Shown here: positions 1,886 through 50,865 of the stretch, piece after piece | How positions within the stretch are numbered: the stretch's first letter is position 1 | Layout: each line of letters starts with the position of its first letter | From: Erythrobacter sp. | GTDB taxonomy: Bacteria; Pseudomonadota; Alphaproteobacteria; Sphingomonadales; Sphingomonadaceae | Reading direction: 5' to 3' | NCBI GenBank assembly: GCA_043567175.1 | Contig: CP121323.1 | Location: 1,382,813 to 1,446,812 of the forward strand | Length of the DNA: 64,000 nt | Program-made: the position numbers and the translations under genes | The notes under the pieces: model-generated | Seen by the model: only the letters and a program-made list of their open reading frames with translations | The model's database searches: none | Told to the model about the DNA's origin: nothing

Positions 1886-2701
1886 TCAGCCCACAAACGC
1901 CCGTTCGATCACGAACTGGCCGGGCTTGTTGTTCGCGCCCTCTTCAAAGCCGCGCTTTTCGAGGTCAGCGGCGTGGTCCTTGATCATCGCCATCGATCCG
2001 CACAGCATCACGCGATCTTCGTCGGGCACGAAACGCTGCGGGCCTTTTGATTGCTCGAACAGCCGGCCATCATCGATCAGCGTCTGGATGCGCCCCTGCG
2101 TGCGAAAGCTTTCGCGCGTGACGGTGGGCACATATATAAAGCGTTCGCGCTGATCGTCCTCGAGCAGCGGATCGCCTTCCAGCTTGCTTTCGAGCAATTC
2201 GCGATAGGCAAGATCCACCACGCGGCGCACCGAATGGACCACGATCACCTCGTCGAACATCTCGTAGACTTCCGGATCACGCGCGAGGCTCATGAACGGG
2301 GCAAGGCCGGTGCCGGTGGACAGCATGAACAGCCTTTTGCCCGGCAGCAGCGCATCGGTCACCAGCGTGCCGGTCGGCTTGCGGCCAAGATAGACCGGAT
2401 CGCCCGGCTTGATGTGTTGCAGGCGCGAGGTCAGCGGCCCGTCCTGGACGATGATCGAAAGGAATTCCAGTTCCTCGTCATAGCTGGGCGAGGCGACCGA
2501 ATAGGCGCGTAGCAACGGCTTGCCGTTTTCCTGCGGCAGGCCGATCATCACGAACTCGCCCGAACGAAAACGGAAACTGGCCGGCCGCGTCATCTTGAGC
2601 GTGAACAATTCCTCGTTCCACTGATGCACATGCGTGATCGTCTCGACGGTGAGCGCCGCGCTTTCGGTGAACTGGTCGCGGTCGGTAATGGGCATGTTCA
2701 T
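1886..2701 (-). CDS. fpr: Ferredoxin/flavodoxin-NADP+ reductase (bacterial type)
   Basis: Motifs RAYSVASP, GPLTSRL, LSTGTGLAPFMS, MLCGS and the C-terminal ERAFVG. Start is ATG 2701 or 2695. Confidence 0.93.
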   Translation of the reverse strand: MNMPITDRDQFTESAALTVETITHVHQWNEELFTLKMTRPASFRFRSGEFVMIGLPQENGKPLLRAYSVASPSYDEELEFLSIIVQDGPLTSRLQHIKPGDPVYLGRKPTGTLVTDALLPGKRLFMLSTGTGLAPFMSLARDPEVYEMFDEVIVVHSVRRVVDLAYRELLESKLEGDPLLEDDQRERFIYVPTVTRESFRTQGRIQTLIDDGRLFEQSKGPQRFVPDEDRVMLCGSMAMIKDHAADLEKRGFEEGANNKPGQFVIERAFVG

Positions 2702-2929
2702 GGGAAGATGTCTCGATTGTTCGGCATTGTCGGTCGGGTTGGCGCGCAAATGAACGTTTCGGACGCGCGCTTCAAGGTAGTTTCGGCATGGAGCGTGATA
2801 GACGCGCTTGAAAGCAAGGGATGCGATGCACCTTCAGCGACCAAGCATCCCTGCCGCGTCTGCCTGTAGCGAGCGATTGATCGGCGGTGTATGACCGGTT
2901 GTGGGGTGGGAAGAGGACATTGTCTATTC

Positions 2930-2956
2930 CGTCATTCCAGCGAAAGCTGGGATCGC
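2930..2956 (+). repeat. CGTC-tagged REP-like palindrome, left copy
   Basis: CGTCATTCCAGCGAAAGCTGGGATCGC, with an internal stem around GAAA. Confidence 0.85.
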
Positions 2957-2962
2957 TCACGG

Positions 2963-3247
2963 TCACAGTATGGTCTCGAAAAGGTCATCCCATTGAGGGT
3001 TGCTCTTTTCGATCTGCTCGATCTTCCACGCGCGCTTCCACGCCTTCATCGCTTTTTCCCTGGCAATCGCGTCGGTAATTTCAGCGTAATGCTCAGCATG
3101 GACCAGACGATCGAGGCCGTAACGGCGGCAGAAGGCTGAGCCTTTCCCTTGCTTGTGCTGTGTAACCCGCGCGGCGAGGTCGGCGCTGACACCGATGTAC
3201 AGCACACCGTCGCGTTTGTTGGTCATGATGTAGACCCAGCCACCCAT
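2963..3247 (-). CDS. Small GIY-YIG nuclease family protein
   Basis: WVYIMTNKRDGVLYIGVSADLAARVTQHK followed by AIAREKAMKAWKRAWKIEQIE. Confidence 0.9.
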   Translation of the reverse strand: MGGWVYIMTNKRDGVLYIGVSADLAARVTQHKQGKGSAFCRRYGLDRLVHAEHYAEITDAIAREKAMKAWKRAWKIEQIEKSNPQWDDLFETIL

Positions 3248-3273
3248 TGCCGTGAGCTAGCACGAGGTCGAGG

Positions 3274-3300
3274 GCGATCCCAGCTTTCGCTGGGATGACG
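3274..3300 (-). repeat. CGTC-tagged REP-like palindrome, right copy (inverted)
   Basis: Reverse complement CGTCATCCCAGCGAAAGCTGGGATCGC matches the left copy at 26 of 27 positions. Confidence 0.85.
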
Positions 3301-3427
3301 ATTGAGGCGCGATGCCGAAGTAAAGCAAATAGGGTCGCAAGCCGACAGTCCGCTCTTGTCTCGTTGAATCCAAAAGCCGTCGCTTGGCAGGCCGTCGCTT
3401 CTGCTGCCTTCCAAAAAGCCGGCGGCT

Positions 3428-4495
3428 TCAGTTCCACCCTGCCGCATCGTAGATCGCAACCGCCTTGGCCTGGTTGGCGCCGATGGTTGCGGTGCTCAGG
3501 TCATCGGCCCTGAATTCGCCCAGCGAGGCCACCGCCGAGGTCGGCGCGACGCCGGGGACGGCGGGGTATTCGTTGTTGCCGTTCGCAAAATAGCTCTGGG
3601 CGCTGTCGCTGGTGAGATATTCGAGGAAGCGGATCACGTTCTCGCGGTTGGGTGCGTTCTTCACGAGGCCAGCGCCGCTGATGTTCACATGGGTGCCGGT
3701 GGTCTCCTGATTGGGGAAGATCACGCCGATATTGTCGATCAGACCGCTTGTATCCTCATCGCTCGCATAGCGCGCGAGGTAGTAGGTGTTGACCACGCTG
3801 ATACCGCATTCGCCACTCGCGACCGCCTCGATATTGGCGGTGTCGTTGCCTTCGGGCGCGCGGCGGAAATTGGCGACCACGCCCTTGGCCCAGTCGAGCG
3901 CTGCATCCTCGCCCTGATGCGCGATGATGCTGGAGAGCAGCGAGATGTTGTAGATGTTGGACGAGGAACGCATGCAGATCCTCGCGCGGTGACGCGGATC
4001 GGCAAGGTCCTGGTAGGTCTCCAGCCCCTCGGGCCGACCGTCGGCAGCGTTGTAGATGATGATGCGCGCACGCGTCGAAAGGCCGAACCAGAGGCCTTCG
4101 GGGTGGCGCAGATTTTCCGGGATACGCTGTGCCAGCACTTCGGATTCAACCGGCGCGAGGACGCCGGCTTCCTCGGCGCGCCACAGCCGCCCTGCATCGA
4201 CCGTGATGAGCAGGTCCGCAGGCGAATATTCGCCTTCGCTCGCAATCCGCTCGATCAGCGCATCCGCACCCGCCTCGATGCGGTTGACCTTGATGCCGGT
4301 TTCCCTGGTGAAGTCCTCGTAGAGCGCAAGGTCGGTGTCGTAATGGCGCGAGGAATAGATGTTGACCTCGCCGGTGATCTCGACCGCGTCGGCGGCTTCA
4401 TCGGCGCTCTGCCCGCAAGCCGAGAGCACGAAGGCTCCCAATGCGGCGAAAAGGAAATTGCGGGTGCGCGAGGTGGGCCGGATGCTGTTTTTCAC
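3428..4495 (-). CDS. fbpA: Fe(III) ABC transporter substrate-binding lipoprotein (FutA/FbpA type)
   Basis: GTG start at 4495, lipobox VLSAC, and motifs VNIYSSRHY, ADLLITVDAG, VNTYY, NISG and NNEYP. Confidence 0.9.
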   Translation of the reverse strand: MKNSIRPTSRTRNFLFAALGAFVLSACGQSADEAADAVEITGEVNIYSSRHYDTDLALYEDFTRETGIKVNRIEAGADALIERIASEGEYSPADLLITVDAGRLWRAEEAGVLAPVESEVLAQRIPENLRHPEGLWFGLSTRARIIIYNAADGRPEGLETYQDLADPRHRARICMRSSSNIYNISLLSSIIAHQGEDAALDWAKGVVANFRRAPEGNDTANIEAVASGECGISVVNTYYLARYASDEDTSGLIDNIGVIFPNQETTGTHVNISGAGLVKNAPNRENVIRFLEYLTSDSAQSYFANGNNEYPAVPGVAPTSAVASLGEFRADDLSTATIGANQAKAVAIYDAAGWN

Positions 4496-4521
4496 GTGGG
4501 TGATTCTCTTTCGTCCAATAC

Positions 4522-4540
4522 TTTGCGAATGATTTGCATT
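4522..4540. promoter_or_regulatory. Fur-like iron box upstream of fbpA
   Basis: TGCGAAT-G-ATTTGCA (4524-4538) is a 7-1-7 inverted repeat with one mismatch, about 30 bp upstream of the fbpA start. Confidence 0.7.
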
Positions 4541-4613
4541 ATTATGGCGGATTGGCAAGCAAAGCCGTCTCAAGACACCGCTCTTGCCCATGCCTTTCAC
4601 GAACCGGCTTTGC

Positions 4614-5705
4614 TCAGTCCGACACGAAGACCCGCACCGTGTCGGGATCGGGATAAATGCGGTAGCGGCTGCCCTGACGGATATGGTCAGCGGCCGATTG
4701 CGGCACTTCGGCGGTGATTTCGGCGCCCCCTGGATGGCGCAGCAGCACGCGCGCGCGCTCGCCCAGCGGATGGACATCGCGCACGGCTATGCCCTGCCCG
4801 TCAGGCTCGAGCCGCAGGGCGCGCGCCTGGACAAGCAGTTCGACCTCCTCGCCTTCCCTGCCCGGCAAATCCTCGCCGCCCCTTTGGGCATATCCGCGCG
4901 CGCATTCAGGCGGCCAGCGGCCAAAGACGCTTTCATAGGCGCCCTTTTTCACGATAGCCCGGATGATCTGTGCGCCGCCGAACATCGCCCCCACGGCAGG
5001 CGTGGCAGGCGCATTGTAGAGCTCTTGCGGGGTGCCGAACTGAACGATCCGCCCGGCTTCCATCACCGCGATCCGGTCGGCAATGTCGAGCGCTTCATCG
5101 GGGTCGTGGGTGACGAGGATCGTCGTCGTCCCGCGCTCGCGCAGCAGGATCCGGCATTCACGGCGCAAGGACCGGCGCAGCACGATGTCGACGCTGGCAA
5201 AGGGCTCGTCCATCAACAGCACGCGCGGCTCGGGCGCCATCGCGCGGGCAAGCGCGGCGCGCTGCTGCTGGCCACCCGAGAGCTCGTGCGGATAGCGCTG
5301 GCCCAGCCCGCCCAGCCCGACCCGCGCAAGCCAGCCCTCGATCTCGCCTGCCCTGTCCGCGCGGCGATTCTTCGGAAGGCCAAAGCCGATATTTGCGCGC
5401 AGGGTCATGTGGGGGAACAAGGCGGCGTCCTGGAAAACAAGGCCCACGGGCCGCGCTTCAGGCGGGGGCGAGGCACCCGGCTGCGCGAGCGCCTCGCCAT
5501 CGAGCATGATTTCGCCCTCCTGCAGCGCCAGCAATCCCGCCGCGAGATTCAGCAAGGTTGACTTGCCGCAACCCGACGCGCCAAGCAGGCAGGTGATTTC
5601 ACCTGCGGGCGCTGTGAAGCTCACATCTTCCAGCGCGCGTGTTCCTCCACGCTTGTTTCCCCTGGCGCCGTAAGAATGGGCAATATGGCTGAATTCGAGG
5701 CTCAA
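4614..5705 (-). CDS. fbpC: Fe(III) ABC transporter ATP-binding protein
   Basis: Walker A GASGCGKS, signature LSGGQQQ, Walker B LLMDE and H-loop VTHD. TTG start. Confidence 0.88.
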   Translation of the reverse strand: MSLEFSHIAHSYGARGNKRGGTRALEDVSFTAPAGEITCLLGASGCGKSTLLNLAAGLLALQEGEIMLDGEALAQPGASPPPEARPVGLVFQDAALFPHMTLRANIGFGLPKNRRADRAGEIEGWLARVGLGGLGQRYPHELSGGQQQRAALARAMAPEPRVLLMDEPFASVDIVLRRSLRRECRILLRERGTTTILVTHDPDEALDIADRIAVMEAGRIVQFGTPQELYNAPATPAVGAMFGGAQIIRAIVKKGAYESVFGRWPPECARGYAQRGGEDLPGREGEEVELLVQARALRLEPDGQGIAVRDVHPLGERARVLLRHPGGAEITAEVPQSAADHIRQGSRYRIYPDPDTVRVFVSD

Positions 5706-11501: not shown

Positions 11502-12437
11502 TCAGGGCGAATTGTCAAACGTCACCGGCAGGCTGGCGGGGTTTGATCCGGTAGCCGAGACCCATTCGAGGTCCTTGGCTTTTTTCGTCAACCTTGGCTG
11601 TGCCGCGATGACAGCCCTGATGACCTCCTCGAGGGTCAAGCGCGCAAGCCAGGCTCCAAGACAGAAATGCGCGCCCCCGCCAAAGGTCATCATCTTTGGC
11701 GCATCGGTGTCAAGGAAGCGGTCCGGCTTGAAGGCATCGGGTGTAGCCCAGAGGTGCGGGTCGCGATTGGCCGCAAAGGTCGTCAGCATCACGATCTGGC
11801 CGGCACCGATCCGCGCCCCGTGAAGGTTGAAGGCTTCAACAGCTGTTCGCGGGGCAGCCGCGATCGAGCCCTCAAGGCGGATCGTCTCGTCCACGAGAGC
11901 GGACAACCCGGCCTCTTCAATGTCCTGCAACTCGCCCCAGTCGCCGTGACGGAACAGCACGTAGAGCGAGCATCCGATCTGGCCCAGCGTGGTATCCTGC
12001 CCGGCAATCAGCAGGTTGGAGACCATGTCCACCGTCTCTTGCCGCGAAAGCCGGTCGCCCTCATGTTCGGCCTCGATCATTCTCGTGATAAGGTCGTCTG
12101 CGGGCAAGGCGGGCCTGCGCTCGACCATGTCTTCCACATATTCGCGCAGATCGTGCAGCGCGGCCGCCGCCGCGTCGATCTGCTCGGCGGTCATGAAGGC
12201 AAACACGGCCGACAGATCGGCGATCCAGTCGAAGAACTGTCCGACATCCTCCTTCGGTACACCAAGAAGCGAGCACATCACCTGCATCGGCACATCGCGC
12301 AGCGCACCGAGCAAGTCGCCGCCGCCCTGAACTTCTAGCCGAGCCAGACGGTCCGAAGCGATCAGTGCGGTTTCGGCTCTGAGCGAAGCCAATGCCTTGG
12401 GCGTGCCGGAAAATGAGCCCGCTCGCGCGTTATGCGT
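11502..12437 (-). pseudogene. Cytochrome P450, N-terminally truncated
   Basis: I-helix AGQDTT, ExxR (ETIR), PDRF and heme motif FGGGAHFCLG are present. The frame hits an upstream in-frame stop at 12438-12440, giving about 310 codons against about 400 for a typical P450. Confidence 0.75.
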
Positions 12438-50259: not shown

Positions 50260-50865
50260 TCAATTGCGAAAGGTGCTCGCCGCAAGCGCGCTGCGCTGGA
50301 CCACGGTCAGCGAGCACAGCGCCGCATAACCATAGGCGATGGGCACGAACCAGCCGGAAAACAGGCACATGGCGACGAAGACCGCGATAGTCTCTGTCCC
50401 TTCGGCCAACCCTGTCGAGTAAAAGAAACTCTTCCTTCCGTGCGCCTCGCTGGCCGCCCCGCGTTCGGCGGCGATGACGGCAAAGGCGAGGAAGCTCACG
50501 CCTGTCAGCACGAAGCTCGCAACTAGCACCAGCGCGGCCAGAGTGTTGGCCGGGTCCAGCAATCCGAAAGCAAGCGGGATAGAGACGTAGAAGGCGAAAT
50601 CGGCGACAATGTCGAAATATCCGCCCAGCGGCGTTGGCCCGCGCACCCGGGCAACTGCGCCGTCCAACCCGTCGAGCACGCGATTGGCGAGGATCAGGCC
50701 CAGCCCGGCGGCTAGGTTCCCTTGCGCAATCGCGACTGCCCCGCCCAGCCCCAGCGCAAGCCCGGTGAAGGTCAGCGCGTTGGCAGTCACACCGAGCCTC
50801 GCCAGCATGTTCCCGATTGCATTCAAGGGAGGATCGATCAGCGGGCGCAGCTTTACATCCAGCAT
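50260..50865 (-). CDS. CDP-alcohol phosphatidyltransferase family protein (YnjF-like)
   Basis: Signature DGLDGAVAR...GGYFDIVAD and GLAEGTET. Confidence 0.9.
   Translation of the reverse strand: MLDVKLRPLIDPPLNAIGNMLARLGVTANALTFTGLALGLGGAVAIAQGNLAAGLGLILANRVLDGLDGAVARVRGPTPLGGYFDIVADFAFYVSIPLAFGLLDPANTLAALVLVASFVLTGVSFLAFAVIAAERGAASEAHGRKSFFYSTGLAEGTETIAVFVAMCLFSGWFVPIAYGYAALCSLTVVQRSALAASTFRN

Follow-up and report, generated by a model that had tools for sequence, protein, structure and literature searches.

A hairpin-bracketed GIY-YIG nuclease cassette between fpr and fbpA in Erythrobacter sp.: a probable variant of the SRM-ssnA-SRM architecture with comparative evidence of insertion

REP palindromes flank RAYT HUH/Y1 transposases and are recognised by them as ssDNA hairpins. 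Such REP/REPIN-RAYT systems were reportedly described by Nunvar in 2010, Bertels and Rainey in 2011, and Ton-Hoang in 2012.

A comparable arrangement with a different enzyme is provided by the Ssn family and its NTS/SRM repeats, described by Chenal et al. (Nat Commun 2025; PMC11893778). Ssn proteins are 94-aa single-domain GIY-YIG enzymes (CDD cd10448, GIY-YIG_unchar_3), and inverted NTS/SRM hairpins, CGTCATTCCCGCG..GCGGGAATC, stand on both sides of their genes (PMC11893778). The Neisseria NTS, CGTCATTCCCGCGMAVGCGGGAATCYRG, is an oriented form of the dRS3 repeat and was generalised as the Ssn-related motif, SRM; ssnA is the gene most frequently flanked by NTS, and an SRM was found nearby in 71% of homologues and on both sides in 42% (PMC11893778). 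Purified SsnA binds the motif as ssDNA only and in one orientation only, and cuts a few nucleotides 5' of it (3 nt as read from the oligonucleotide design). Cleavage depends most on the three bases before the palindrome and binding most on the C just after it; the N. meningitidis enzyme (Nm SsnA; NMV_0044) does not bind the RNA form of the motif, and its mutants Y6A, Y17A, and E64A abolished cleavage (PMC11893778). Binding and cleavage of the cognate hairpin in ssDNA form have been demonstrated for four family members (N. meningitidis, N. elongata, N. wadsworthii, and Wolbachia), and in N. meningitidis the enzyme reduces transformation by NTS-containing DNA (PMC11893778). Mobility of NTS-ssnA-NTS was raised as a hypothesis only, and both this question (whether the unit is or was mobile) and the role of the enzyme outside Neisseria were left open by that study (PMC11893778).

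Literature searches combining GIY-YIG with REP or REPIN terms returned nothing, and a search with the hairpin sequence led to the Ssn paper. An initial sequence-only reading of the present locus had stated that no biochemical characterisation was known; this statement is outdated, since the architecture and the assays were published in 2025 (PMC11893778). That study had already reported the architecture, the activity specific to ssDNA, and the parallel to IS200/IS605 and REP/RAYT (PMC11893778); the present locus adds a probable new member with a variant hairpin.

Cassette architecture and relationship to the Ssn family

The window, which is the whole 64-kb stretch of Erythrobacter sp. DNA analyzed here, contains an intact ORF for a 94-aa GIY-YIG protein between two inverted, CGTC-tagged 27-nt palindromes (Table 1). 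The two arms are equal at 26 of 27 positions with CGTC at each outer end, and the neighbouring genes are fpr-like and fbpA-like; all of this agrees with the sequence-only reading. The arm on the 3' side of the gene forms an 8-bp stem with one G.T pair and a GAAA loop, preceded by the 5' CGTC tag and with a C directly after the palindrome, and the arm on the 5' side forms a perfect 8-bp stem with a GAAA loop. Extension of the inverted repeat to 32 nt leaves 91% identity. Folded as ssDNA, the arms reach −7 and −9 kcal/mol (z-scores of −2.6 and −3.5, respectively). One hairpin is separated from the stop codon by 6 nt, the other from the ATG by 26 nt. When up to three mismatches are tolerated, the window holds two copies of the hairpin, which are the two arms themselves, whereas the expectation from shuffles is 0; this excludes an abundant repeat that flanks the gene by chance. 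With no other motif copy in 64 kb, the window offers no local target population, and neither flanking module of the cassette (Table 1) recurs in it.

Table 1. Features of the cassette and its surroundings (positions in the window)
Feature	Position	Strand	Remarks
fpr-like gene (neighbour)	1886-2749	-	
Extra DNA relative to empty sites (approximate)	2850..3425	.	from alignment to the fpr-fbpA intergenic regions of relatives
Flanking module, 3' side of gene	2904..2929 (wider 2893-2929)	.	CTTCCCACCCC on gene strand; reads ..GTCCGCTCCCCACCCAC..
SRM/NTS-like hairpin 3' of ssnA	2930..2956	+	CGTCATTCCAGCGAAAGCTGGGATCGC
Core cassette with hairpin boundaries	2930..3300	.	371 bp; similarity to most other-genome cassettes stops 0-3 nt from the ends
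ssnA-like gene	2963..3247 (stop codon included)	-	intact 94-aa single-domain GIY-YIG nuclease
SRM/NTS-like hairpin 5' of ssnA	3274..3300	-	CGTCATCCCAGCGAAAGCTGGGATCGC
Flanking module, 5' side of gene	3301..3354 (wider 3301-3358)	.	..AGCGGAC..GCT..CGACCC..; common to L122, L163, L164
fbpA-like solute-binding gene (neighbour)	3428-4777 as listed, ends 3428	-	449 aa

The ORF product matched Pfam GIY-YIG (PF01541; E = 1e-14, residues 3-76), and Pfam found no second domain. Residues Y6, Y17, R27, H31, E64, and N83 are present, and the corresponding Y, Y, R, H, E, and N are invariant across the family alignment. The protein has the same length as Nm SsnA, 94 aa, and carries Y6, Y17, and E64 at identical numbers. 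It is 50% identical to a Dyella protein, which in turn is 56-72% identical to proteins flanked by the canonical NTS. NCBIfam has no specific model for it and gave only sub-threshold UvrC and intron-endonuclease matches. Its PDB relatives are UPF0213 proteins only (1ZG2 and 1YWL; E = 4.7e-5 and 6e-3); these UPF0213/YhbQ proteins are likewise stand-alone GIY-YIG domains of ~95-107 aa and represent the only solved structures with detectable similarity, but they belong to a different subfamily.

The hairpins of the window retain the critical GTC 5' of the palindrome and the C directly after it. Both arms miss the published SRM pattern, HGTCWYN(0-2)YYVSBRHN(0-5)WNVSBRGN(0-2)RNCYNB, by one position (G at Y, 2 nt after the palindrome), and both match when its last three positions are removed. 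A match on both sides of the gene was obtained at 59 of 80 loci of the Erythrobacteraceae set with the shortened core versus 11 of 80 with the full pattern, and the GATCGC tail is typical there. The degenerate SRM pattern also matched at 12033-12062 (+), with no good stem by eye, and at 50450-50479 (−), whereas shuffles gave 0.56 matches on average and at most 2; these two matches are probably due to chance, as the pattern has a background rate in GC-rich DNA.

These features make it probable that the 371-bp unit belongs to the Ssn family, as an SRM-ssnA-SRM cassette whose hairpin is a variant. The locus shares with the published family the single-domain 94-aa GIY-YIG protein with Y6/Y17/E64 and the bracketing inverted hairpins, each with CGTC on its 5' side, a stem of 8 bp, a loop of the GNRA type, and a C following the palindrome; in the wider set of relatives, the repeat is likewise scattered through the genome, and protein and hairpin co-vary. 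It differs in the stem (ATCCCAGC/GCTGGGAT here, ATTCCCGC/GCGGGAAT in published Ssn) and in the tail (GATCGC here, AATCCR in published Ssn). The host here, an Erythrobacteraceae-like alphaproteobacterium, is not known to have any link to transformation, and the copy in the window is demonstrably an insertion (see below). The locus would also add a predicted enzyme/hairpin specificity pair (ATCCCAGC stem, GATCGC tail) to the uses proposed for the family as ssDNA tools.

An Rfam scan of 2600-3600 at E ≤ 1 matched nothing, and a promoter scan of 2700-3500 found no promoter-like site for the ssnA-like gene. Terminator-like sites in 2700-3500 were limited to the fbpA terminator (3421-3438) and one site in the fpr leader; the SRM hairpins, which lack a T-run, do not resemble terminators. 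As a separate observation, the fbpA-like ORF has a long N-terminal extension ahead of the solute-binding domain, with Pfam matches beginning at residue 151, and the real start of this gene is probably well downstream of 4777.

Bracketing, co-variation, and constraint among homologues

A scan of the window protein against one genome per species yielded 80 loci with 64-89% identity, mostly from Erythrobacteraceae and other Sphingomonadales. In approximately 66 of these 80 close homologues, the motif precedes the ATG by ~29 nt and recurs in inverted form ~15 nt beyond the end of the gene, with CGTC always outward, and at most of these loci the unit is 365-375 bp long. Only 11 further motif copies were present in ~470 kb of flanks, so that the repeat is rare away from the gene in these relatives as it is in the window.

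A profile-based scan headed by the Dyella homologue gave 80 distant homologues (L281-L360), 56-72% identical to the Dyella protein and distributed among Dehalococcoidia, Planctomycetota, Nitrospirae, Cyanobacteria, Omnitrophota, CPR, and Beta-, Gamma-, and Deltaproteobacteria. Approximately 55 of these 80 cross-phylum homologues are bracketed by inverted CGTCATTCCCGCGAAAGCGGGAATCCA-type hairpins, which is the published NTS. Homologues are thus usually flanked by the repeat, both near and far. Most of L281-L360 carry near-identical CGTCATTCCCGCG..GCGGGAATC hairpins. The distribution over L281-L360 implies that enzyme and motif would have spread together, horizontally and widely.

More distant homologues carry other hairpins that are equal on both sides of each gene (CGTCGCCCCTGCGCAGGCAGGGGCC, CGTCGCCCCAGCGAAGGCTGGGGCC, and CGTCATGCCAGCTCCAGCTGGCATCC), a second subfamily has CGTCGCCCCGTGCTTGACACGGGGC, and the hairpin classes with cognate proteins include GCCCCTGC and GCCCCGTG. 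These discrete classes track the protein subfamilies. Among 114 loci at which the gene has a perfect-stem hairpin on either side, similarity was 0.944 between hairpins of the same gene and 0.804 between those of different genes. At the same loci, protein identity correlated with hairpin identity (rho 0.47; reached by 0 of 500 permutations), a correlation that stems in part from shared ancestry and is supportive, not decisive. A family HMM run on all motif loci found no GIY genes beyond the tblastn matches.

The sequence-only reading had tied the nuclease to the palindromes around it, with a chemistry other than HUH and in parallel with REP/RAYT. This held in all three respects, given the flanking, the rarity of the motif elsewhere, the co-variation, and the published ssDNA assays of homologues.

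At loci conserved between species, orthologous and vertically inherited copies had dN/dS values of 0.08-0.14, and the hairpins were 92-100% identical versus 38-75% for the short spacers. On comparative grounds, gene and hairpins are thus conserved together. The ssnA-like gene of the window had dN/dS values of 0.06-0.15 against relatives, by which measure it is still under purifying selection. Such strong conservation of resident copies and their hairpins, together with the insertion and amplification described below, makes the question of domesticated versus selfish testable in culturable Erythrobacteraceae.

Some individual loci deviated from the common arrangement. A 23-nt insertion exactly in the loop splits the downstream hairpin of L155 (~3290-3350), and the downstream hairpin of L174 (~3290-3320) is truncated past the first stem arm. 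Sphingomonad-type sequence also occurred in records assigned to distant taxa, namely L045 (Acidimicrobiales MAG), L056 (Burkholderiaceae MAG), L194 ('Arthrobacter sp. TPD3018'), and L269 and L274 ('Synechococcus sp. UW140' MAG). The sequence in question is the exact 25-mer, an ssnA homologue at 67%, or an Fpr that shares 89-90% identity with that of the window, and these records are likely the result of mis-binning, contamination, or mislabelling, or otherwise of recent transfer.

Insertion sites, borders, and additional copies

The sequence-only reading had suggested a search for an empty fpr-fbpA site in relatives. In all 77 relatives with conserved gene order (Fpr identity 86-96%), both the GIY gene and the motif are missing from this site, and the fpr-fbpA intergenic region measures 122-236 nt versus ~729 nt in the window. 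Because the intergenic sequence has diverged even in the nearest relatives (Fpr 96% identical), the junctions of the extra DNA (Table 1) are approximate, and its outer ~55 and ~70 nt may be native intergenic sequence. Comparison of these sites demonstrates, at the level of sequence, that the cassette was inserted into the fpr-fbpA intergenic region as a discrete unit.

A second polymorphic site was observed between two genes that are 12-25 nt apart in ~45 relatives and are separated by a cassette in L163. In L265, a cassette of the other subfamily occupies the same site in the opposite orientation. Presence/absence polymorphism at orthologous sites, a trait of insertion sequences, is thus seen at both fpr-fbpA and this second site. 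Another genome has an unrelated insertion of ~377 nt without SRM at the same intergenic hotspot (L228, ~4600-4976).

Most comparisons across genomes lose similarity 0-3 nt beyond CGTC, which is the expected position of Ssn cleavage. No direct repeat indicating a target-site duplication was found at the borders of about 55 cassettes. A subset of cassettes is extended by additional modules, which measure ~26 nt on one flank and 45-58 nt on the opposite one (flanks of L121-L143, L163, and L164). The 3'-side module of the window also occurs at cassettes at other loci (L122, L143, L137, L131, L140, L134, L139, and L164), and the core with both modules (2904-3354, 451 bp) is 84% identical to the L122 cassette, which lies at a different locus in another genome. 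The modules may be part of a larger composite repeat or the mark of a preferred target.

E. sanguineus DSM 11032 has at least seven copies on different contigs, which share 401-434 bp at 94-97% identity and nothing else; other genomes have two copies. In six of the seven E. sanguineus copies ATC replaces ATG, three have premature stops, and dN/dS is relaxed (0.33). Since the inactivating change is common to them, these copies multiplied after gene death, and they were therefore copied by something in trans or by recombination. The start codon is also absent from both copies in E. donghaensis.

The hairpin was mostly found away from the gene. The exact 25-mer was present at 120 loci, only eight of which have a GIY homologue. 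In relatives, inverted doublets of the form '+ 24-66 nt −' have CGTC outward as in the cassette in 75 cases versus one of the opposite polarity, and the doublet folds as one long, REPIN-like hairpin (−38.8 kcal/mol); the 64-kb window has no inverted doublets. In L051, most of the gene is deleted and both hairpins are kept. Nested double brackets (+ + gene − −), ~80 nt on either side of the gene, were noted in L154 and L157, as if the cassette had landed inside an existing doublet.

The locus and its relatives thus provide comparative evidence of cassette insertion at new sites and of amplification as dead copies. The insertion, the dead-copy bursts, and the REPIN-like doublets exceed what has been reported for the family (PMC11893778).

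Predicted activity and alternative explanations

By analogy with the characterised homologues, the window protein would bind the hairpin CGTCATYCCAGCGAAAGCTGGGATC only in ssDNA and in one orientation only, and would hydrolyse the strand ~3 nt 5' of CGTC. On the + strand this would put the cut near 2926/2927 and on the − strand near 3303/3304, in each case just beyond the boundary of the unit. The cellular role is likely to be the processing or restriction of motif-bearing ssDNA, such as transforming or conjugative DNA or ssDNA at the replication fork. Because its sites are on opposite strands and its chemistry is hydrolytic, the enzyme alone cannot excise or paste the unit, and any role of Ssn in its spread would thus go via host repair. 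A possible route is a nick at a replication fork that leads to a break and to repair from another SRM-bearing locus.

Several known systems resemble the cassette in part. As in REP/REPIN-RAYT systems, a single nuclease gene is flanked by palindromes that are recognised as hairpins in ssDNA, the repeats are scattered both singly and as inverted doublets, and the gene is inherited vertically under purifying selection. In contrast, Ssn is a hydrolytic GIY-YIG enzyme whereas RAYT is an HUH/Y1 transposase that forms a covalent intermediate, the head reads CGTC here and GTAG in REP, and ssnA can be multi-copy and pseudogenised. IS200/IS605 elements, in which the Y1 transposase TnpA carries out peel-and-paste ssDNA transposition, also have end hairpins, recognition of ssDNA, cleavage close to the foot of the hairpin, and no duplication of the target site. 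Unlike them, the cassette is far smaller (0.37 kb) and has no Y1 transposase, and its hairpins are inverted, which places the cleavable sites on different strands instead of a single one. No transposase of the DDE, HUH, Ser, or Tyr type is present in the cassette, whose sole ORF is the GIY-YIG hydrolase. GIY-YIG homing endonucleases (I-TevI and the Seg proteins) share the GIY-YIG core and possibly a selfish spread via nuclease-provoked repair. However, the window protein has no separate DNA-binding domain and is encoded in a chromosomal intergenic region with no intron, intein, or phage, and characterised Ssn members leave dsDNA uncut.

Mobility of the cassette is supported by the recurrence of the bracket, the co-variation, the empty sites, the multicopy genomes, and the doublets. 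It is a possibility, though a tentative one, that SRM-ssnA-SRM is an active selfish element, that is, autonomous or trans-mobilised mobile DNA of ~0.37-0.45 kb. The copying would be provoked by nicks at the borders or SRMs, through homing-like or break-induced repair, a step about which we are doubtful; the short SRM doublets could conceivably be its gene-less, MITE/REPIN-like derivatives. The site that is empty in all 77 relatives argues for such an element, as do the use of the second site by two subfamilies (L163 and L265), the E. sanguineus copies at unrelated loci and the pairs of copies in other genomes, and the shared ATG-to-ATC change, which points to spread in trans after inactivation. 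The common polarity of doublets and cassettes, the internal deletion in L051, the nested brackets of L154 and L157, the end of inter-cassette homology at the expected Ssn cut, and the likeness of homologues across phyla point in the same direction. On the other hand, a GIY-YIG hydrolase has no strand-transfer step, inverted hairpins cut on opposite strands give no single-strand excision (PMC11893778), and target-site duplications are not seen. Many cassettes are old residents of conserved loci under strong purifying selection, like host genes; inserted or repeated segments often exceed 371 bp and include flanking modules, so that a larger mover or recombination is possible; and the window has a single cassette with no further SRM in 64 kb. 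The sequence-only reading had proposed a minimal selfish or REP-amplifying element: the empty site and the multicopy genomes agree with the former, but that the nuclease itself copies the repeat and drives the spread seems to us rather unlikely. More specifically, the unit might be a currently active mobile DNA of ~0.4 kb driven by a hydrolytic ssDNA endonuclease and not by a transposase, a view that we advance with reservation; the empty sites, the hotspot used by two subfamilies, the burst of dead copies, the borders at the predicted cuts, and the cross-phylum likeness of the proteins are consistent with it. If true, it would be a GIY-YIG counterpart of REPIN-RAYT which, unlike RAYTs, still jumps, and which also spreads gene-less doublets.

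Two further explanations were weighed. The hairpins could be REPs or REPINs spread by a RAYT (HUH Y1) encoded elsewhere, with Ssn as an unrelated host or competitor nuclease that recognises them. The ATTCCCGCGCAGGCGGGAATC REPIN population of Neisseria, which has the NTS palindrome, was assigned to a Group 2 RAYT, and REPIN decay was linked to RAYT frameshifts (Bertels and Rainey, bioRxiv 10.1101/2021.07.10.451892); the doublets in relatives are also REPIN-like in forming one long hairpin. Nevertheless, the 5' tag is CGTC and not a GTAG-type REP head, and the only recurrent ORF family within 600 nt of 120 motif loci was GIY-YIG (six to seven loci). No recurrent transposase or RAYT was found beside these 120 loci, which is weak evidence as a single-copy gene elsewhere would be missed, and none of the best 25 Pfam families occurred in more than 2 of 115 motif neighbours. 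We regard a RAYT origin as improbable. It is even harder to credit that the protein is an ordinary small repair nuclease (COG2827, UvrC-N-like, Cho-like) whose hairpins only stabilise, terminate, or regulate its own transcript, and we consider this very improbable. Small COG2827 genes have been proposed to act in repair, one Caulobacter copy was reported with an SOS box (PMC1839093), the fixed distances of the hairpins to start and stop would suit 5' and 3' stem-loops of an mRNA, and purifying selection is strong. Against this, the site is empty in relatives and some genomes have pseudogenised multi-copy sets. A purely regulatory role of the hairpins is likewise unlikely, because most copies, including the doublets, are off-gene, the hairpins are not terminator-like, and Nm SsnA leaves the RNA form unbound (PMC11893778).
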